DNA from: a virus | Virus record (IMG/VR): IMGVR_UViG_3300044492_000038 | Length of the DNA: 59,356 nt | Reading direction: 5' to 3' (one strand) | Shown: piece by piece, positions 8,646 to 58,864 of the stretch | How the letters are laid out: each line of letters opens with the position of its first letter | Numbering within the stretch: position 1 is the first letter of the stretch | Position numbers and translations under genes: made by a program | Notes under the pieces: model-generated | The model's input: only the letters and a program-made list of their open reading frames with translations | What the model was told of the DNA's origin: nothing | Databases searched by the model: none

Positions 8646-10307
8646 ATGGCATCACTCACAACCGGCATCGTTGCTGATGTCTCATTCAATCGCGTTCCCG
8701 AAGCAATCAAAGAGCGTTGGTCTGTCGTGCGTGATGTCGTGTCCGGCGACAATGAATTACGCAGCGGCACATATTTGCCGCAACTCAATGCCACTGATGC
8801 GAGCGTAGAGAACATAGCGCGCAATGCCGCCTATCGCGTGCGTGCGGTGTGGTATCCCGCAACGCAATTCACGCTCGAAGGGCTTGTCGGCTTAGCCTTT
8901 CATCGTGACCCTGTGACGAAGCTACCGACACAACTTGAGTATTTGCTCAAGGATTGCGATGGGATGGGCGTGTCACTCTATCAGCAGTCGCAAGCGACAT
9001 TGAACAACAATCTCGCAGTCGGTCGACACGGTTTGTTTGTCGATTGGTCAGAGGCATCGGGGCATCCGGTCATCAAGGCATATCACGCAGAGAGCATCAT
9101 CAATTGGCGATACGACATCGTCGATGGCAAGGCGACGTTGTGCATGGTGGTGCTCGAAGAAGAAGCCGAAGAAGAAGATGGCGAGTGGGGCATCTTGCTC
9201 GTGAAGCAGTGGCGCGAGATCACGCTCAACGATGCGGGCAACGTGCAAGTGCGCCTATGGCGCGAAGACACAGGCGCGGCGAAGACGAAGCGTCTCGTGT
9301 CGCTGGGTGTCGTCAAGAATATGGCGACGGGTGATGAAACGCAGATCGAGGCAGTCGAATTGCGCAGCCGTGGCAAGGTGCTCACTGAAATTCCCTTCAC
9401 GTTCATAGGCAGCAACAACAATGATGCGAGCATTGATCCGTCACCTCTTTATGGATTGGCGCAGCTTAACTTGGCCCATTTTCGTAATAGTGCGGATTAC
9501 GAAGACAGCGTTTTCTTCTGCGGGCAAGTGCAACCGTGGATCAGCGGACTAACCGAGCAATGGCGCGACTTCATGCAGAACCCTTATGTGCTCGACTCCA
9601 ACGGCGAGCGACGCTACACCGGACAGAAGATGTATATCGGCTCACGCAGCCCGATCCTACTGCCGCAAGGCGCACAATTCGGCATCGCACAGGCTGAGCC
9701 CAACATGCTCGCGAAAGAAGCGATGGAGCACAAAGAAGCGCAGATGGTTGCAGCCGGTGCGCGCATGATCGAGGCGACGAAGGGCAACAAGACCGCGACA
9801 GGTGAAGACAATGATCGAGAGGCGACGACATCGGTGTTGGCCTTGTGTGTGTCGAACGTGTCCGAAGCATATCAGCGGGCCATAGGCTTTTGCGCGATGT
9901 TCATGGACATGCCAGAGAAGGCAGAAGGCTATGATGACGCGTTTAAGATACAGCAAGACTTCGTCCGACTACAGGCGAACCCGCAACTCATGGCAGAACT
10001 CACGAAGGCATGGCAAAGCGGTCTTCTGGCGAAGAACGATGTGCGCGATTTCTTCCGTCGTCTTGGCCTTATTGCTACTGAGCGCAGTAACGAAGACATC
10101 GACAAGGATGTTGAAGAAGAAGAACCGCTCGGGACGATGGGCCTGCCAGCGGTCCCAGGTGCCCCAGGCGTGACGCCACCGGCCCTAGCAGCGGCGGCGG
10201 CAGCGTCGGCGGCGAACGGTGCGCCTGCGGCCCCAGGCAAGGCCCCAGCGGTGCCGATCCAGATCAAGCCCCAGGACGAGCGGCGGGCGAAGGCTCGGGC
10301 GCGGTAA
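8646..10307 (+). CDS. Portal protein
   Basis: 553 aa. Start set at ATG 8646, just past the upstream stop. Supported by position after terL, size, a conserved N-terminal portal-like region and an Ala/Pro-rich C-terminal tail. Confidence 0.85.
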   Translation: MASLTTGIVADVSFNRVPEAIKERWSVVRDVVSGDNELRSGTYLPQLNATDASVENIARNAAYRVRAVWYPATQFTLEGLVGLAFHRDPVTKLPTQLEYLLKDCDGMGVSLYQQSQATLNNNLAVGRHGLFVDWSEASGHPVIKAYHAESIINWRYDIVDGKATLCMVVLEEEAEEEDGEWGILLVKQWREITLNDAGNVQVRLWREDTGAAKTKRLVSLGVVKNMATGDETQIEAVELRSRGKVLTEIPFTFIGSNNNDASIDPSPLYGLAQLNLAHFRNSADYEDSVFFCGQVQPWISGLTEQWRDFMQNPYVLDSNGERRYTGQKMYIGSRSPILLPQGAQFGIAQAEPNMLAKEAMEHKEAQMVAAGARMIEATKGNKTATGEDNDREATTSVLALCVSNVSEAYQRAIGFCAMFMDMPEKAEGYDDAFKIQQDFVRLQANPQLMAELTKAWQSGLLAKNDVRDFFRRLGLIATERSNEDIDKDVEEEEPLGTMGLPAVPGAPGVTPPALAAAAAASAANGAPAAPGKAPAVPIQIKPQDERRAKARAR

Positions 10308-11574: not shown

Positions 11575-11888
11575 GCGACACACTCGACAAGGCTGTTGCC
11601 GATGTTCTCGCTAAGTTGCAGGAGGTCATTCCAGATGAAGACGAATGGAATACGCTGCGGTATGGCGATGGAACAGGGCGACGGTTCGCAAGCATACAAG
11701 GCAAGACACGAAAGAACGTGGTGCTTGTCAACGAGTTCGGAGAATTCAGGGTCGTAGGTGTTTTGTCAGGTGGGACTATGCTGTGGCACGAACTCACGAA
11801 GCTACTTTGTGGCGTTCACTATCAAGTGTTCGTCATGGAAGACAAATGGTATTTGATCGGCGAACTTGAGCCGGTTATCGAGGAATGA
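11571..11888 (+). CDS. Hypothetical protein (105 aa)
   Basis: ATGA coupling to the upstream micro-ORF. Confidence 0.6.
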   Translation: MSDTLDKAVADVLAKLQEVIPDEDEWNTLRYGDGTGRRFASIQGKTRKNVVLVNEFGEFRVVGVLSGGTMLWHELTKLLCGVHYQVFVMEDKWYLIGELEPVIEE

Positions 11889-11889
11889 T

Positions 11890-12093
11890 ATGGAAATGAT
11901 GAATCGTGCAATCGAAGATGCGGCGGACTTCAGCGACATGCTGACGAAGCTAGAACAGCGTGCCTCTGATGGTCATCTCGCGAAGACACTGCGCGAACAG
12001 GTTGACCAACTCGAAGCGGCGCACGCAAGGCCGGTGAAGCGCCCAGGCGAGAACCGTGTGAAGTATCGCAGTCGTGTCTATGGAGGTTCATGA
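11890..12093 (+). CDS. Hypothetical protein (67 aa)
   Basis: Start moved to ATG 11890, after GAGGAA and the upstream stop. The longer ORF starts at 11866. Confidence 0.5.
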   Translation: MEMMNRAIEDAADFSDMLTKLEQRASDGHLAKTLREQVDQLEAAHARPVKRPGENRVKYRSRVYGGS

Positions 12094-12233
12094 TGCCGCT
12101 GAAGAAGTCCACATCGAAGAAGGCATTCACGAAGAACATCAAGAGCGAGATCAAGGCGGGCAAGCCGGTGAAGCAAGCCGTCGCCATTGCCTACGCGGTC
12201 AAACGCAAGGCGGCGGCGAAGCGCAAGCGCTAG
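12090..12233 (+). CDS. Small Lys/Ala-rich basic protein (47 aa)
   Basis: GGAGG precedes an ATGA overlap. Sequence MMPLKKSTSKKAFTKNIKSEIKAGKPVKQAVAIAYAVKRKAAAKRKR. Confidence 0.5.
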   Translation: MMPLKKSTSKKAFTKNIKSEIKAGKPVKQAVAIAYAVKRKAAAKRKR

Positions 12234-12381
12234 TCTCGTCATCGTCGCGTCGCCTGCGCACTTCTGTCTTGTGCGCAGCGGCGAGCACTGCGCGTGCGAG
12301 CCTGATCTCATAGGCATAATTCGCATCGTCACTGTAAACAGGCAACAGGATGACGATGCGCTTGATTTGATCGTCAGTCAT
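12199..12381 (-). CDS. Hypothetical protein (60 aa)
   Basis: ATGA overlap with the upstream gene. The 3' end overlaps the convergent gene by 35 nt, so support is weak. Confidence 0.35.
   Translation of the reverse strand: MTDDQIKRIVILLPVYSDDANYAYEIRLARAVLAAAHKTEVRRRRDDDETSACASPPPCV
12254..12278. other. 8-bp-stem hairpin at the convergence of the rightward and leftward blocks
   Basis: CTGCGCAC-ttctgtctt-GTGCGCAG. There is no T-run, and it lies inside a weak minus-strand ORF. Confidence 0.3.
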
Positions 12382-12557
12382 CGAGCTACCATTTCGTACA
12401 GTGATGTGGTCTTGTAGCCCATAGCGGCAACTCGCTTGCAAAGTTCGTCGAAGCTTATCTGCCCTAGAGCACATTGCTCTACTAATTCGCCGATCAGTGG
12501 GGTCCTTGCCACTAAAATCACCTGAATATCAGCGATGTGGGTGACGACGATGCTCAT
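12378..12557 (-). CDS. Hypothetical protein (59 aa)
   Basis: Internal ATG 12557 forms an ATGA overlap with the upstream stop. Confidence 0.5.
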   Translation of the reverse strand: MSIVVTHIADIQVILVARTPLIGELVEQCALGQISFDELCKRVAAMGYKTTSLYEMVAR

Positions 12558-12787
12558 GTTCGATTGCTCCTGCCAGTGTGGACGAATGCCTTCGCTTGTT
12601 CGATCTCTTCGAAGCGGTACACCTGCCATGCTGCGAAGTCTTCGAACGACATGCGCCCGTTGCGTACTGCGTCGTATGCTTGCTTCTCGCCCATACCGAC
12701 CCAATAGGGACGCTCGGCGATGTTCTTCATCATGCCATCGAAGATGTTGCCTAGCATGTCTTCGGGCCATCCTGCGTAATCAGCCAT
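12554..12787 (-). CDS. Hypothetical protein (77 aa)
   Basis: Internal ATG 12787 follows GGAGACGAACA and gives an 8-nt overlap. Confidence 0.55.
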   Translation of the reverse strand: MADYAGWPEDMLGNIFDGMMKNIAERPYWVGMGEKQAYDAVRNGRMSFEDFAAWQVYRFEEIEQAKAFVHTGRSNRT

Positions 12788-14006: not shown

Positions 14007-14336
14007 TTAGAAGGGCAGATCGTCGAATTCGAGATCAGCAGCGTAGACCGGCGCGGCGCGGCGGGCCTTCGGGAAGAGCGACGCGGGAAGCAGCGGCTCG
14101 GCGACGTACCAGCTATCGTATTCATCACCGTCGAGACGCTGATGCTTGCCGTTCACGACGGGACGCATAACGCGATATTCGCAAGCGTCGTCGAGGTCAC
14201 GCAGGTAAGCGTCAGCGTAATCCTTCGACACAATGCCGGTGTCGCAGCATGCATAACACGTGTAAGGGATGCCGTCTTCGTCAAGCTCGGGATACAGGGG
14301 ATTGCACTTAGGGCAGGCGGCGGTGAGAGCGTTCAT
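14007..14336 (-). CDS. Zinc-ribbon protein with SSB-like C-terminal tip (..DLEFDDLPF)
   Basis: 109 aa with an N-terminal CPKC...CYACC and the C-terminus EFDDLPF. Preceded by type-II cassette C. Confidence 0.65.
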   Translation of the reverse strand: MNALTAACPKCNPLYPELDEDGIPYTCYACCDTGIVSKDYADAYLRDLDDACEYRVMRPVVNGKHQRLDGDEYDSWYVAEPLLPASLFPKARRAAPVYAADLEFDDLPF

Positions 14337-14350
14337 TTTGCGTCTTTCAG

Positions 14351-14396
14351 AATTCGTTGCGATGACGAATTATAGCACGACGTTTCGGCGTAACGC
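14351..14396 (-). promoter_or_regulatory. Type-II cassette C: TATAAT overlapping hairpin AATTCGT-N7-ACGAATT, with a degenerate CGTTA..AACG dyad upstream
   Basis: -10 at 14369-14374. Hairpin arms at 14351-14357 and 14365-14371. The 22-nt core ttcgttgcgatgacgaattata is shared with cassettes E and H. Confidence 0.6.
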
Positions 14397-14398
14397 AA

Positions 14399-15040
14399 TC
14401 AGATCAGAATTAATTTCTTTCTGAGCCATCGGGCTCGGCCTGTCTTAATCAAATGCATCGCAGCACCGCGTACTTGCAAGTAGGTCAGGTCACACCAACA
14501 CGCAAGGTCCATCTCGGTCATCGGGCCTTCGTCGCGTATCGCTCGCGCCACCGTCGCCGATGGTCCGCGTGCGATCACAGGCACGCTGCCGATGCTGCGC
14601 ACATGGTACTTCACGCCCATTGCATCAGCCGTCGCCATCAGGTCATTCGCATCGTAGCCCAGGTGCCTACAGGCGAGCCCGATCATGACGCCGACGAATC
14701 GCGGGCCATGTCCCTCGTCGTCCGGCGTGAGCCGGTGCGCGGCTTCGTGCAGGATCACCCACGGGTTACGCGCCCAGCGTGGCAAGGTGATCTTGTGGCA
14801 GTCGTGCGCAATCGCGCTACGCTGCCCCCAGGCGGGCCGCTCGATGGCAGGCATGGCAACCCTAGCGAGCCCATAGCGCCCGCGCTCAGAACGCCAGATC
14901 GGGCGCAGGTAGTCGGTGCACTCGTCCAGGGTTGCCAGGGTGCCGAAGTGGTGCGAGCCCTTCGTGATCCGGGTTTCCCATCGGTAAACTTTGCTCTTCT
15001 GGTTATCGCGCCCGCGTAGGGCAACATCGTTACGCGCCAT
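14399..15040 (-). CDS. SprT-like HExxH zinc metalloprotease with C-terminal winged-helix-like region
   Basis: 213 aa from the internal ATG 15040. Contains KVYRWE and VILHEAAHRL...GHGPRF. Confidence 0.7.
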   Translation of the reverse strand: MARNDVALRGRDNQKSKVYRWETRITKGSHHFGTLATLDECTDYLRPIWRSERGRYGLARVAMPAIERPAWGQRSAIAHDCHKITLPRWARNPWVILHEAAHRLTPDDEGHGPRFVGVMIGLACRHLGYDANDLMATADAMGVKYHVRSIGSVPVIARGPSATVARAIRDEGPMTEMDLACWCDLTYLQVRGAAMHLIKTGRARWLRKKLILI

Positions 15041-15329
15041 CGCGTTCTCTGAGCCATGCAAGCGCTTCACGTGCACACGGTGCGTCCCATCCAAACATGG
15101 ACGCCTGCAACGCAGAGCGAAGCACCGCATCGCTTGCGGGTCGTCCGTTAAGTTCTTCATGGTCCGGATGATGCAAAGGCCAGAAGCCTTTGTCACCGAG
15201 CTTGACGCCGATCATCGGTGCGTCGACGAACGTCAAGGCCATGTGTGCAGGCATGAAGATCATGCCCTTGACATCGGGCATGCTGCGGTTTCTTTCGCTC
15301 GGGTGTTGGATAGCTGATGCGGGTTTCAT
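15030..15329 (-). CDS. Hypothetical protein (99 aa)
   Basis: The ATG follows CACAGAAAGCACGAC and overlaps the upstream stop (ATGA). Confidence 0.55.
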   Translation of the reverse strand: MKPASAIQHPSERNRSMPDVKGMIFMPAHMALTFVDAPMIGVKLGDKGFWPLHHPDHEELNGRPASDAVLRSALQASMFGWDAPCAREALAWLRERDGA

Positions 15330-15535
15330 GTCGTGCTTTCTGTGGTTTGCATGCGTGGGTTGAGAGATGCGGCGAACAGGCTTCGAGCGTATGCGCGCAG
15401 GAGTGCGTGTTGCTCGGGCAGCAAGTAGATGCCGCGCACTTCCGTCTTGCCTTCGACAGTGCGTCGGGCTCGATAGAGTGCTTGACGTTCGGCGGTAGTT
15501 TGTGCGCTCATGATGCTTGTGCCTTTGTGGTTCAT
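15326..15535 (-). CDS. Putative ribbon-helix-helix (CopG/Arc-like) DNA-binding protein
   Basis: 69 aa with AERQALYRARRTVEGKTEVRGIYLLPEQHALLRAYA, which resembles CopG-type RHH regulators. ATGA overlap with the upstream gene. Confidence 0.5.
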   Translation of the reverse strand: MNHKGTSIMSAQTTAERQALYRARRTVEGKTEVRGIYLLPEQHALLRAYARSLFAASLNPRMQTTESTT

Positions 15536-15858
15536 GCGAAGAGGTGCGCGTCGTTGCGCGCCAGGATTGCGCCTTCGTAGTCGAACGAAGGTGCGCGGTT
15601 GAAGCTCGCGAGAACAGCCGCACCGCGTGCGTTGTGCTCGGCGACTGCTGCTGCCCATCCCTTCGGCGTGAACACGCGTGAGCATGCGCAGCCGAAGCCG
15701 TCAGTTGCAGCGGTGACGCGAAAACCGGCGATTGCGAGAGCGTCGACGACGACGGTGTCGAGCGTGGGCACGTTGGCGTATCCGTTGTTGCCCATCTCGG
15801 CTTCGGTCAGTGCGAAGAAGATCGAGGCGGTTTGTTCGGCGGTGTAGATCACGGTCAT
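15532..15858 (-). CDS. Hypothetical protein (108 aa)
   Basis: Preceded by cassette D. Confidence 0.65.
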   Translation of the reverse strand: MTVIYTAEQTASIFFALTEAEMGNNGYANVPTLDTVVVDALAIAGFRVTAATDGFGCACSRVFTPKGWAAAVAEHNARGAAVLASFNRAPSFDYEGAILARNDAHLFA

Positions 15859-16063: not shown

Positions 16064-16112
16064 AATTTCGTTGCGATGACGAATTATAACCCGTTATTGC
16101 GTAACGTCGCAA
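16064..16112 (-). promoter_or_regulatory. Type-II cassette E, with promoter and dyad embedded in the 3' end of the upstream gene
   Basis: -10 at 16083-16088 overlaps the stop codon at 16084-16086. CGTTA-N5-TAACG at 16092-16106. TTGCGA at 16107-16112. Confidence 0.55.
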
Positions 16113-16754: not shown

Positions 16755-17155
16755 GATGCTTCTGTAGGTAGGTTGCTCAATACTTCGTCGTGCATCTCGA
16801 CATCGTCGAAGCTGACTTCGGCGTCGGGCATGTCGATTGCGGCTTCGTCGAGGTCGACGCTCTGCCATGCTTCGATCATCTCGCGCACTGCTTCGCCTTT
16901 CTCGCCTTCTTGCCACCGCTCGGACTTCTCTTCGAAATCATTCTCCCAATTCTGCGCGACATCTTCGGCGAATGCCTTCGCTTCAGTGAGCGCTTCATTG
17001 TAGATGTCTAGTGCCGCTTGCAGTTCGTTGCGTGCGACGGTCATCGCATCATTGAAGGCAACGACAGCGGTGTCGACCGCTTCGCGTTGCTCTTGAATCT
17101 TCACCGCGATTGCGTCGCGCTGTGCGATCTGTTCTTTGCCGAGTTTGAAAAGCAT
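16751..17155 (-). CDS. Highly acidic coiled-coil protein (134 aa)
   Basis: 34 Asp/Glu versus 11 Lys/Arg by my count. The leader GAAAGAAAGACGACA precedes the ATG. Confidence 0.65.
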   Translation of the reverse strand: MLFKLGKEQIAQRDAIAVKIQEQREAVDTAVVAFNDAMTVARNELQAALDIYNEALTEAKAFAEDVAQNWENDFEEKSERWQEGEKGEAVREMIEAWQSVDLDEAAIDMPDAEVSFDDVEMHDEVLSNLPTEAS

Positions 17156-17168
17156 TGTCGTCTTTCTT

Positions 17169-17342
17169 TCAGTTTGTGGATTTGAGTGCCGACACCGGCA
17201 GCGCGATCTCTCCGCGCATTTTGCGGCCTGTCACCGGGCACACTTCTTTGAGTTGCGCATACTTCTCGTTGCCGATCACGCGAAAGCCCAGGATCAAGAA
17301 GGTTCCGACTTTCGCGCCTTTGACTGTTTGTCCGATTTGCAT
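17169..17342 (-). CDS. Hypothetical protein (57 aa)
   Basis: Hand-translated: MQIGQTVKGAKVGTFLILGFRVIGNEKYAQLKEVCPVTGRKMRGEIALPVSALKSTN. Preceded by cassette F. Confidence 0.5.
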   Translation of the reverse strand: MQIGQTVKGAKVGTFLILGFRVIGNEKYAQLKEVCPVTGRKMRGEIALPVSALKSTN

Positions 17343-17369
17343 TTTGTGCCTTTCTGTTGGTGTGTAGAG

Positions 17370-17400
17370 ATTATAGCACCGTTATCGGGTAACGGTGCAA
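17370..17400 (-). promoter_or_regulatory. Type-I cassette F (perfect)
   Basis: -10 at 17370-17375. Arms at 17376-17384 and 17390-17398. TTGCAC at 17395-17400. Confidence 0.7.
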
Positions 17401-17407
17401 ATTCTTT

Positions 17408-17674
17408 TTAGTTGGCGGCGTAAACAGTGCGCTTCGCGTTCCACTTGTCGACGACGGGCTTGCCGTTCTCGTCTTCGTCGATTGCGACGTGAACGACGGT
17501 CTGCAAGACGCGAGCGAAGCGCTTTTCGCCCGTGTTGTTGAAAGCGATCTCGAAGGGGAAACCGTTCTGCGCGCCCCAGGAATCAGCGGCGGCGGTGAAG
17601 AACTCTGCCCAATGCTTGCGGCCAGAGTCGTCGCGCCATTCGATTTGTCCTGCGGGTTTGTTTGCTGCGGTCAT
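17408..17674 (-). CDS. Hypothetical protein (88 aa)
   Basis: Internal ATG 17674 follows ACAGAAAGCAGACC. Preceded by cassette G. Confidence 0.6.
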   Translation of the reverse strand: MTAANKPAGQIEWRDDSGRKHWAEFFTAAADSWGAQNGFPFEIAFNNTGEKRFARVLQTVVHVAIDEDENGKPVVDKWNAKRTVYAAN

Positions 17675-17709
17675 GGTCTGCTTTCTGTTTCCGGGTTGCT
17701 GAAGCCTAG

Positions 17710-17740
17710 AGTATAGCACACCGTTATCGAGTAACGGTGC
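17710..17740 (-). promoter_or_regulatory. Type-I cassette G (TGCTATACT; 8-bp arms CACCGTTA/TAACGGTG)
   Basis: -10 at 17710-17715. Arms at 17719-17726 and 17732-17739. Confidence 0.6.
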
Positions 17741-17751
17741 GCCTTTCTTTT

Positions 17752-18141
17752 TTATTTCGCGATCACTGCGAAGGGTTTGTTCCACTTGCCGACGTTGATG
17801 TCGACGTAGTGTCCGACGTGGAAATAATCGGTCATGCTGTCGGACTTGTCGAAGTTGTCGAGGTTCAACGCTTCGCTGATCTTTTCAAACGTCGCGGTGA
17901 TCTCGGCATCGGTGAAACATTCGTCGATGCGCTTGTGATAGATTTGCGCATACGTCATCGTCTCGGGTTTGCGATACTCACTCGGCACGAGCGCTGCGAT
18001 CAGGTTGACAGGTGCAGCCGAGATCGTCAGAACGATGGTCGAATGATTGTTGACAGCAAGAGAAAATTTCCAGCCTTTGGGCATGACTGCCTTCAGTGCC
18101 GTTGCGATCTTTGCTTTCTTCTGTTGGTCTACGTATGCCAT
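17752..18141 (-). CDS. Hypothetical protein (129 aa)
   Basis: Preceded by type-II cassette H. Confidence 0.65.
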   Translation of the reverse strand: MAYVDQQKKAKIATALKAVMPKGWKFSLAVNNHSTIVLTISAAPVNLIAALVPSEYRKPETMTYAQIYHKRIDECFTDAEITATFEKISEALNLDNFDKSDSMTDYFHVGHYVDINVGKWNKPFAVIAK

Positions 18142-18158
18142 GATTTGCTTTCTAGGTT

Positions 18159-18204
18159 AATTCGTTGCGATGACGAATTATAGCATGGCGTTTCGGCGTA
18201 ACGC
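18159..18204 (-). promoter_or_regulatory. Type-II cassette H
   Basis: Hairpin at 18159-18165 and 18173-18179. -10 at 18177-18182. Same 22-nt core and the GCGTTTCGGCGTAACGC dyad as cassette C. Confidence 0.6.
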
Positions 18205-18206
18205 AA

Positions 18207-18692
18207 CTACGGGCGAAAGAATTCTCCGAATATTTCGCGGGCCGCTTTGTCATAGGCCGCTTTCGCTTCTTCAATTGTGGCGAAGTGACCGAGATGTCGA
18301 TTGTGAATGCGCGCTTTCCACGGCTTGTCGAGTCGCTGCGAATGACTAACGCCTTTTGCGCCTGATGGGTTGTCTGCGTGCACAGAGGCATTGCCGTTGT
18401 TCATCGACTGGTTTGCGAGACGCAAATTATTCCAGCGATTATTTACTTCGTCATGATCTCTATGGTCAACGCCTGTTGTCGGCCATTCGCCGGTCATGTA
18501 GAGCCATGCCAAGCGGTGCGCGAGATGCTTGCTCCCATCGACGTTGACGTACACATAGCCAGCACCGTTAATGCTTCCGGCGACTTCACCGGCCCGACCT
18601 CCCCTAGCGTTGCTGACGGTGATGCGTCGAGTAAAAAGCCCGGTGTCGGGCTCGTAGATCAGGAGTTCGCGCAGGCGTTCGACGGTCAGCAT
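18207..18692 (-). CDS. HNH homing endonuclease with AP2-type DNA-binding domain
   Basis: 161 aa with HRLAWLYMTGEWP..VDHRDHD..NNRWNNLR (the HNH part) and GVSHSQRLDKPWKARI...LGHFATIEEAKAAYDKAA (the AP2 part). Confidence 0.85.
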   Translation of the reverse strand: MLTVERLRELLIYEPDTGLFTRRITVSNARGGRAGEVAGSINGAGYVYVNVDGSKHLAHRLAWLYMTGEWPTTGVDHRDHDEVNNRWNNLRLANQSMNNGNASVHADNPSGAKGVSHSQRLDKPWKARIHNRHLGHFATIEEAKAAYDKAAREIFGEFFRP

Positions 18693-57208: not shown

Positions 57209-58084
57209 TCAATATGGGATGTCGTCGTCATTGTCGGCACCGGGCTCGCGTCCCATGTCCGGCGCTTTCTCGAAGTCAGGCTTGACGGCACCGCTCTTCA
57301 CGCTCTTCGCGAACTTCTGCGCTTCGATGAAGATCGGGTCTTGCGGGCCTTTGAGATAGCCTGCATGCGTGAATGCCCATCCCATCCACGAGCCCTTTTC
57401 GTTGCTCTCTGGCACCGTCGTGACACGCCACTTGCTCGCATACATCGGCGGCGTGTAGGGACCGTTCGGGCCTTTGAGCTTCAGCATGTTCTGCTGCATG
57501 TACCATGACTTCGATTTCTTGATCTGCGTCGATGTCATGGTGATGAGCGCAGGCGTCGCGTAGCCTTCTGCTTCGTTGAAGACCATCACGAAGAACGTGC
57601 GTGTGTCGTTCAACTGATTGCCGCTCTCGATGATGTCGCGATTCTTGTCATCGCGCATGCTCTTCTCAAGCAGTCGCTCACCTTCTTCGACCGAGTGCTG
57701 ACCCTTGAAGCCACCGCCGTTCTCGCGAATGCGCCACTCGATGAAGAACCGATCATAGGCGCACGGGATCACGTACAGCGGTGTCTTGATCGGGTCATAG
57801 AGTTCTTTGGTCACGCTGTTGAATAGCATGCCTTCTGCCGCGCCTTCGATGTACTCGCCTTCGCTGCGCTTCACCTGGGGCGAGCCCGATTGCAAGATCG
57901 TCAGGAAAGGAATCGCGAGATCGTCCTTCGTCGCGCCTTGAAAGCCTTCACCGGCAAAGCCGCTGAAGTCGTCGGCTGCTGTCGTCAACGCTGCGCCGTT
58001 AGGCTTCGGCGTCACGATTGCGTTCGCTGATGCTTCGGGCGCGTTCGCCGGTTGTGTGGGAGTTGCGGTTGTGGTGTCTGTCAT
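57209..58084 (-). CDS. Putative ssDNA-binding/recombination accessory protein ending in an SSB-type tip (DNDDDIPY)
   Basis: 291 aa. The ORF is solid. The function is inferred only from the acidic C-terminal tip and the replication/recombination neighbourhood. Confidence 0.55.
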   Translation of the reverse strand: MTDTTTATPTQPANAPEASANAIVTPKPNGAALTTAADDFSGFAGEGFQGATKDDLAIPFLTILQSGSPQVKRSEGEYIEGAAEGMLFNSVTKELYDPIKTPLYVIPCAYDRFFIEWRIRENGGGFKGQHSVEEGERLLEKSMRDDKNRDIIESGNQLNDTRTFFVMVFNEAEGYATPALITMTSTQIKKSKSWYMQQNMLKLKGPNGPYTPPMYASKWRVTTVPESNEKGSWMGWAFTHAGYLKGPQDPIFIEAQKFAKSVKSGAVKPDFEKAPDMGREPGADNDDDIPY

Positions 58085-58641
58085 TTCAATGCTTTCTTTG
58101 CTGTCTTCAACTCTGCCTTCTTAAACTGAAAGATGCTAAAGGATGGCGGCAGAGCGGTGCCCTTCTCTAGCAATTCCTTCACGAGCGCTTTCAATGTCGC
58201 AGCGTGAACAGATTCAACGTCTTCCGGAGTGACATCATAACTCATAATTTGCGCGTAGAGCGCTTCGCGTTGTTCTTCTGTCAACGTGCGCACGTCGACG
58301 ACGTAGGCTTCTTTGATGACGCCACCGTGCCCGTTGTCGCGTAGCCACTTGTGCGCGAATGGGCGGTTCGCTTCGGTGATGCTTGCCTTCACATCGTCAC
58401 GCACAACGAGCTTCGTGCCGTCGCTGAGCGTGTAGTCGGCAACACCGGCAAGCTCCATCGCTTCGGGTAAGACGGTGAGTTGATAGCGGTTCAAGTCCGC
58501 TGTGCATCGGTCGAGTTCTGCCTGTGCATCGGCAACCTCTTGCAACTTCTCGCGCAGCGTGCTCGCCATACGCACGAGCATCTGCAAGTGATCTTCTGTC
58601 GGCGTGTCGTTGTTGATGCCGCTGAAATCTGGATCAGCCAT
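58081..58641 (-). CDS. Hypothetical protein with N-terminal coiled coil (186 aa)
   Basis: Internal ATG 58641 gives an 8-nt overlap upstream and an ATGA overlap downstream. Confidence 0.6.
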   Translation of the reverse strand: MADPDFSGINNDTPTEDHLQMLVRMASTLREKLQEVADAQAELDRCTADLNRYQLTVLPEAMELAGVADYTLSDGTKLVVRDDVKASITEANRPFAHKWLRDNGHGGVIKEAYVVDVRTLTEEQREALYAQIMSYDVTPEDVESVHAATLKALVKELLEKGTALPPSFSIFQFKKAELKTAKKALK

Positions 58642-58864
58642 GTTGTACCTTGAATCTTTCTCTGAACGCTGCTTCAGTGCAGACGTATGATTTCGTGGAG
58701 TGCAGTTGGTTATAGTAGACCACTGCGGGCAGTTCTGTGCCCAGGACTTCGAGCACCGTCTCGGTGTCGATGATGCCATCTTGAGTCCCTAGAAGCACCG
58801 TGTAGACGATGTCAGTCTCGATCTCGACGTAGTCGGTGTCCTGGGCGATTGGGCCTTCTAGCAT
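58634..58864 (-). CDS. Hypothetical acidic protein (76 aa)
   Basis: ORF in the operon context. Confidence 0.55.
   Translation of the reverse strand: MLEGPIAQDTDYVEIETDIVYTVLLGTQDGIIDTETVLEVLGTELPAVVYYNQLHSTKSYVCTEAAFRERFKVQHG

Follow-up and report, generated by a model that had tools for sequence, protein, structure and literature searches.

A conserved family of proteins from uncultivated phages joins an acidic zinc ribbon to a proposed C-terminal mimic of the SSB tip

The C-terminal tip of SSB is the hub peptide of bacterial genome maintenance, being read by more than a dozen enzymes of replication, repair and recombination, and it is a drug-target candidate. What, then, is a peptide of this kind doing at the end of a small phage protein with a zinc ribbon at its N-terminus? 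The question is raised by a gene for a 109-aa protein in the uncultivated soil phage IMGVR_UViG_3300044492_000038, whose 59,356-nt sequence was analysed at full length and is referred to below as the window. The initial annotation had proposed that an early, non-SSB protein carrying the tip could compete for or hijack the host enzymes that interact with SSB, or could dock onto the phage replisome.

The reading frame opens with ATG and closes with a TAA codon placed directly after ...AADLEFDDLPF, so that the last residues, DLEFDDLPF, form a free C-terminus as had been proposed; the cysteine cluster noted at the other end was also located, with CPKC at residues 8–11 and CYACC at residues 27–31 (Table 1). 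An RBS-like motif, GAAAGA (14348–14343), precedes the ATG by 8 nt, and a perfect extended -10 element, TGcTATAAT (14377–14369), precedes it by 33 nt. The latter is part of a private promoter-like cassette that also comprises TTGCGT (14398–14393), an 18-nt spacer and a dyad, AATTCGT-N7-ACGAATT (14371–14351), situated just downstream of the -10 and overlapping it. This variant of the cassette (family D6) is found in three copies in an 8-kb block of small leftward genes (14351–14398, 16065–16112 and 18159–18206), where it precedes the tip gene, an 81-aa ORF and an HNH endonuclease gene. The commoner cassette of the same phage carries a different dyad, GCACCGTTA-N5-TAACGGTGC, upstream of the -10, and the three genes with the D6 variant may perhaps be regulated differently from those with the commoner one. 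In a strict consensus promoter scan the cassette of the tip gene was not called, its -35 matching at only three of six positions. For P0001 and P0002 the gene callers assigned longer N-termini than in the 109-aa form; since these would cross the promoter cassette, the 109-aa form is likely to be the real product. Early expression, as the initial annotation supposed, is plausible from the private sigma-70-like promoter. The contigs obtained from two soil metatranscriptomes fall at 11826–12700 and 15007–15701, with none across the tip gene, and are uninformative either way.

Table 1. Coordinates in the window of the tip gene, the parts of its product, its promoter-like cassette and the second tip-bearing protein.
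Feature	Coordinates	Strand	Basis
CDS of the 109-aa zinc-ribbon/tip protein, stop codon (14007–14009) included	14007..14336	-	ORF listing; pN/pS indicating purifying selection
Private promoter-like cassette of the tip gene	14351..14398	-	read from the sequence
Residues 1–54, Cys4 zinc ribbon and acidic amphipathic helix (family core)	14175..14336	-	alignment A3, AlphaFold
Residues 59–80, β-hairpin (RPVVNGKH ... EYDSWY)	14097..14162	-	AlphaFold strands 64–70 and 75–80
Residues 81–100, Pro/Ala-rich linker containing PLLP	14037..14096	-	AlphaFold, alignments A1–A3
Residues 101–109, D-L-E-F-D-D-L-P-F, SSB-Ct-like tip	14010..14036	-	ORF listing, family alignments
Pam3_Gp34-like replication-module protein, 291 aa, ending ...ADNDDDIPY	57209..58084	-	PF23977, E 1.4e-67

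The AlphaFold model of the protein (mean pLDDT 83.7) rests on an alignment of 47 sequences, an input of six sequences having given an unusable pLDDT of 50. Two short strands at the zinc knuckles, a helix at residues 38–53 and a hairpin at residues 64–80 are predicted, followed from about residue 81 by a tail with no regular structure (pLDDT 63–75). The best defined blocks are the ribbon and the helix (pLDDT 86–95), the helix being acidic and amphipathic. In the ribbon, residues C8, C11, C27 and C30 are invariant and are accompanied by an acidic loop of sequence P-E-L-D-E-D-G (alignment A3). The hairpin is limited to the closer subfamily, and unrelated sequence takes its place in the distant members L008, L009 and L010 (alignment A2). 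The linker contains one short helical turn (residues 85–87) and otherwise no secondary structure, its pLDDT falling to 63–75, and its length and sequence vary over the family through indels and substitutions in alignments A1, A2 and A3. The P-L-L-P at the start of the linker (residues 81–84; 14085–14096, minus strand) is a PxxP motif kept in the closer subfamily but not in the wider family; for PxxP motifs in the linker of SSB, a role as a second mode of interaction has been proposed.

The carrier of the tip is not an SSB, which bears out the initial description of it as a non-SSB protein. Its model consists of a ribbon, one helix and one hairpin and lacks the five-stranded barrel of an OB fold, no match to PF00436 was obtained even at E<=1, and its net charge is -10. 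The acidity is a property of the family (mean net charge -8.5; zinc domain negatively charged in 99% of 75 members), and therefore DNA binding is unlikely, while protein binding or DNA mimicry would fit better, the mimicry being a conjecture. Pfam and PHROG scans returned no significant match for the protein or for the genes around it. No significant structural neighbour was retrieved by Foldseek against the PDB and BFVD or by an exhaustive VIA-align comparison: the best structural matches were generic zinc ribbons, with Anti-TRAP chains at a Foldseek probability of 0.38–0.47 (E 0.5), and the best VIA-align Z score, 2.2, corresponded to unrelated chains. The scores from the ESM Atlas (0.82 or less) are leads only, and a profile search of PDB sequences with the family returned chance matches only. 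Sub-threshold matches to the Anti-TRAP and DnaJ Cys-rich Pfam families were seen in 3 of 47 relatives, located in an extra Cys-rich insert of the long members. Thus, no significant structural or sequence relative points to a partner of the zinc domain.

A possible identity with Lar/RalR (PF14354), small phage and prophage proteins that likewise have a CxxC...CxxC zinc ribbon, was considered and rejected. Although nine of 47 family members gave PF14354 matches below the cut-off of 28.6 bits (best E 1.1e-3), the 109-aa protein itself gave none, and the profile comparison with E. coli RalR by hhalign reached a probability of only 14% over 22 columns.

The protein belongs to an unannotated family with members only in uncultivated phages. 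A word-indexed search recovered five relatives, and a profile search over 1.84 billion representatives gave 79 matches, two of which were spurious eukaryotic proteins, leaving about 77 representatives at 50% identity. The zinc-ribbon signature, CPxC followed by P-E-x-D-E-x-G-x-x-Y-T-C-[YF]-x-C-C, is found in all true members. No match was obtained by megablast (3 kb) or by tblastn (six family members) against 50,697 phage records, and the pattern YTCY[FAV]CC[DN] detected no relative over 185,579 species genomes; at the sensitivity of megablast and tblastn used, the family was not seen in cultured phages.

A tip of the form [DE]-x(0-1)-[ILV]-[PA]-[FYW], mostly DDIPF, ends 47 of the ~77 true members. 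In these 47 sequences the terminal residue is Phe in 43, Tyr in three and Trp in one; position -2 is occupied by Pro (45) or Ala (2), position -3 by Ile (36), Leu (7) or Val (3), position -4 by Asp (44) and position -5 by Asp (37) or Glu (6). At position -6 Asp (18) or Phe (9) is found, a pattern that echoes the F-D-D-D-I-P-F of E. coli SSB. Thus, the family peptide has the terminal aromatic residue, the Pro at -2, the aliphatic residue at -3, the acidic residues at -4 and -5, the extreme C-terminal position and the conservation of a docking peptide of the SSB-Ct type. The likeness to the tail of E. coli SSB (...M-D-F-D-D-D-I-P-F) extends to its arrangement, with a flexible linker leading to acidic residues, an aliphatic residue, Pro and a terminal Phe, and the family consensus D-D-I-P-F is often preceded by a further D or F, as in SSB-Ct. 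The tip of the 109-aa protein differs from that of E. coli in having two Asp instead of three and Leu instead of Ile, and its carrier differs from SSB in being net acidic and devoid of an OB fold and of any PF00436 match.

Fifty-nine of the profile matches were made through the N-terminal domain alone and 26 of them nevertheless end in the tip; therefore the association between the two ends is not a product of the search. The initial annotation had named homologues that do not conserve the tip as the finding that would speak against it. The tip was found at the extreme C-terminus down to ~30–40% identity, staying in place while the middle and the linker are replaced or resized. Three distant members on viral contigs illustrate this: L008 (168 aa, ending ...DLDEIPF), L009 (about 124 aa, ending ...GVDDIPF) and L010 (80 aa, ending ...YDFDDIPF) keep the zinc ribbon and the tip around unrelated middle sequence. 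At short range, comparison with the near-identical relatives L001–L006 gave pN/pS values of 0.06–0.17 at pS 0.28–0.40, so the tip gene is under purifying selection; substitutions abut the tip in these relatives (ADLEF / AEIEF / ALELD / VLEF) and DDLPF is unchanged. When the window and ten related loci were scanned in six frames for acidic tails with the ending [ILVMF][PA][FYW], only family members, the gp34-like protein of this phage and one loose match were found. Judged from these sequences, the tip is not a chance ending; the family, in which an acidic zinc ribbon is combined with a mimic of the SSB tail, is real and conserved and had not been annotated before. The L010 contig has, immediately upstream of its family member, another ORF (9608–9991, plus strand) that encodes two CxxC pairs and ends in ...GHFNLPF, a non-acidic tail with the same L-P-F.

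The remaining ~30 relatives consist of the zinc ribbon without the tip. These stand-alone ribbons (L018–L034 and L043–L052) are 45–70 aa long, end in short acidic tails such as ...DEEQI or ...EGEEDE and turn up on numerous viral contigs, the longest of them 178 kb. Since the ribbon occurs alone in many phages, it is an autonomous module, and in the larger group the tip, together with the helix and the linker, is an add-on to this independent binding module, an arrangement that the initial annotation did not anticipate.

The phage itself is tailed, with genes for a terminase, a portal, a MuF-like head protein and a tape measure, and its DNA is present in 22 soil metagenome runs. No near DNA match to it was found among the 50,697 phage records, and the identity of its polymerase to those of Variovorax, Stenotrophomonas and Pseudomonas phages does not exceed 49%. 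The replication genes encode this family-A DNA polymerase, a primase-helicase, an SF2 helicase and a RepB-type primase domain; HNH endonucleases and a DUF932 protein are also encoded. The second tip-bearing protein of the window (Table 1) is the gp34-like product, whose gene adjoins the gp33-like and helicase genes, like in PB1-like phages. PF23977 genes in PB1-like and other phages are placed after the helicase and the gp33-like gene of the replication module. The homologues in cultured phages have an acidic tail with a terminal Phe and no I-P-F signature (Luteibacter phage Pluto ...QADNF, Pseudomonas phage 4P ...EAEEF, Bordetella phage CN1 ...GKPVF), and in the present phage this gp2.5-style tail reads like the bacterial tip. 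No PDB relative of the gp34-like protein was found by sequence or profile, and the Atlas returned its own family only; that this widespread family supplies PB1-like and related phages with their SSB or annealing protein is a guess. Only when the two sequence ends are joined (1060–2640 and 57209–58779, both minus strand) is the order helicase, gp33-like, gp34-like obtained, which suggests that the 59,356-nt stretch is a complete, circularly permuted genome.

A comparison of the genomes that carry the family sheds light on whether the tip addresses a phage or a host partner. PolA is present in this phage, G001 and G002. In G003 (85.6 kb, with direct terminal repeats) and G004 (65.5 kb), both rated 100% complete and both carrying the zinc-ribbon family, no PolA, PolB or Pol III alpha could be detected with three Pfam models, by which unusual polymerases could be missed. 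G003 encodes a canonical SSB (L014 1492–2181, plus strand; PF00436, E 1.6e-39) in which DDDIPF is not terminal: 20 residues, VTSVGVEPSKSKRLRRADFR, lie between it and the stop codon, so that the tip is capped and the only free tip in this genome is that of the zinc-ribbon protein. G004 has neither PF00436 nor PF23977. Among the ORFs of G003, of G004 and of the fragment G005, none but the zinc-ribbon gene terminates in D-[DE]-[ILM]-P-[FY]-stop. The neighbouring genes are not conserved between distant members, with one weak shared neighbour between this phage and L008. The tip is thus found in phages with different replication modules, two of them with no detectable polymerase, and the common denominator would therefore be the host, where this peptide is recognised by all SSB partners. 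Of the two docking sites offered in the initial annotation, the comparative data favour host partners, and docking onto a phage polymerase is disfavoured by the two complete genomes without detectable PolA, PolB or Pol III alpha.

In the reading preferred here, which is given a probability of about 0.5, the tail docks in the SSB-Ct pockets of host proteins and the zinc module makes a second contact, the protein acting as an SSB-tail mimic that blocks or bridges. The Cys4 ribbon and helix would constitute an autonomous protein-binding module, and the C-terminal peptide would copy the SSB tip in its acidic residues, its aliphatic residue, its Pro and its terminal aromatic residue with a free carboxylate. 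This tip would enter the pocket in which SSB-interacting proteins, among them ExoI, RecQ, RecJ, PriA, RecG, the chi subunit, DnaG, Ung and RNase HI, receive SSB-Ct. If the acidic zinc domain were to lie on the basic DNA-binding face of the same enzyme, the protein would be a bivalent blocker; if it bound another protein, it would be an adaptor. Either mode would let the phage rewire a portion of its host's SSB interactome shortly after infection. What was computed here is the layout of the protein, its acidity and lack of an OB fold, the conservation at its two ends, the purifying selection on its gene and the varied replication modules of the phages that carry the family; from these we infer the binding of the tip to SSB-Ct pockets, the identity of the partner and the choice between blocking and recruiting. 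Several points weigh against the proposed mimicry or its host address. The ~30 relatives without the tip imply that the zinc module has a job independent of it. The gp34-like protein of the same phage has nearly the same tip, with which a general competitor would itself compete, a conflict avoided only if the zinc domain confers specificity. Finally, the three Pfam models may have overlooked the polymerases of those relatives in which none was detected.

A more specific form of the preferred reading, considered possible but doubtful, is that of a bipartite inhibitor, with the tip in the SSB-Ct pocket of one host nuclease or helicase and the acidic ribbon in its DNA-binding site as a DNA mimic; the target could be, for instance, ExoI/SbcB, RecJ, RecQ, PriA or a defence nuclease with the same docking system. 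Ugi and Ocr are small acidic phage inhibitors that mimic DNA, and neither they nor T7 gp5.9 are known to have an SSB-Ct tip or a zinc ribbon. The action of gp5.9 on RecBCD is the subject of PMC9836394; gp5.9 too is a small acidic inhibitor that mimics DNA. Like all three, the members of the family are small and strongly acidic phage accessory proteins, and they could cover the surfaces with which host enzymes bind DNA.

The alternatives differ mainly in what the tip is thought to bind. In T7, gp2.5 and gp4 have acidic tails with a terminal Phe that dock on the T7 DNA polymerase; work on the T7 SSB is found in PMC12339929. The tail of the 109-aa protein might similarly dock on phage replication proteins while its zinc ribbon recruits another phage factor. 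Like the T7 tails, and like those of the gp34-like family, the tip is an acidic, putative docking peptide with a terminal aromatic residue, and this phage has the family-A polymerase, primase-helicase and helicases that such an adaptor would serve. The DDDIPY end of its gp34-like replication protein and the acidic, Phe-terminated ends of the cultured-phage homologues indicate that wiring through tails exists in this phage lineage. However, the T7 tails lack I-P-F and address a polymerase, whereas the family occurs also in two complete genomes without detectable PolA, PolB or Pol III alpha, one of which lacks PF00436 and PF23977 as well; in addition, gene neighbours are not conserved between distant members, and the tip gene sits in a block of small promoter-driven genes outside the replication module. 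A role as an adaptor of the phage replisome is for these reasons rather unlikely. The tip could also turn towards the SSB fold. The acidic tails of E. coli SSB and of T7 gp2.5 bind the DNA-binding clefts of their own proteins, as is well established. This intramolecular tail-to-cleft mode is the concern of PMC3936761. By analogy, the 109-aa protein, acidic over its entire length (net -10), could bind with its tip in the ssDNA cleft of the OB fold of a host or phage SSB and modulate SSB loading. Nothing points specifically to an OB fold as the partner, and the conserved Pro and terminal aromatic residue fit the pockets of partner proteins at least as well, which leaves such regulation improbable.

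Phage proteins with host-like tips are known, and the defence systems that respond to them provide a further possibility. OB-fold SSB-like phage proteins with such tips (Bas52_0087 / Bas48 0087) and the activation of DRT10 and DRT4 by SSB-like phage proteins with DDIPF tips have been described (bioRxiv 10.64898/2026.04.29.721553, 10.64898/2026.10.27.754916), prophage DUF669 proteins end in DDDIPF (PMC13687109), and these tips have been interpreted as connecting their carriers to host factors, SbcB among them (bioRxiv 10.64898/2026.04.29.721553; PMC13687109). The family shares with the Bas52_0087-type and DUF669 proteins the phage origin, the (D)DDIPF end and its reading as an interface to host ssDNA processing, but those proteins bind ssDNA through an OB or DUF669 domain, whereas the family has an acidic zinc ribbon of ~50 aa without DNA-binding features. 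A free tip could act as a decoy that saturates or misleads defence proteins sensing SSB-like phage proteins or using SSB-type tails, which would suit a gene lying among small accessory genes with their own promoters; the published triggers act through ssDNA binding, hardly to be expected of an acidic protein of 109 aa, and the chances of this explanation are slim. It is equally hard to credit that the peptide is unrelated to SSB and serves, for example, as a degron, as an intramolecular latch or as a motif of the clamp-binding kind. Chance convergence does occur among short linear motifs, but here five positions match the SSB-Ct consensus at a free C-terminus behind a flexible linker, as in SSB, and the tip does not fit the β-clamp motif, Q-L-x-L-F.

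With these alternatives weighed, a function of the tip protein as an SSB-tail mimic is plausible. Phage SSBs that copy the tip were already known; different from these is a conserved family in which the tip occurs without a DNA-binding domain, and a full-text literature search found no report of a non-SSB protein carrying it. If the tip docks as proposed, nature would have provided, in genetically encoded form, a competitor or adaptor for the SSB hub, and with it a tool for finding out which SSB partnerships a phage has to disable or take over. The idea that phages move the tip peptide between unrelated proteins as a docking tag would likewise gain support. Should the bipartite inhibitor prove true, it would be the first case of a phage protein that acts against the host or its defences through SSB-tail mimicry, and the tip would be a portable address tag grafted by phages onto unrelated modules.

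Two further observations concern the surroundings of the gene. The gene just upstream (14399–15196, minus strand) has no Pfam or PHROGs match, and its product contains H-E-A-A-H and then H-G-P-R-F, an arrangement that we take to recall SprT-like zinc metalloproteases. A low-depth contig from a soil run joins position 17125 to 18660 with 111 other letters in between, the support being weak (21 letters on one side). This junction skips 1.5 kb, including most of the HNH endonuclease gene (18207–18692), and would fit a phage variant without the mobile endonuclease.
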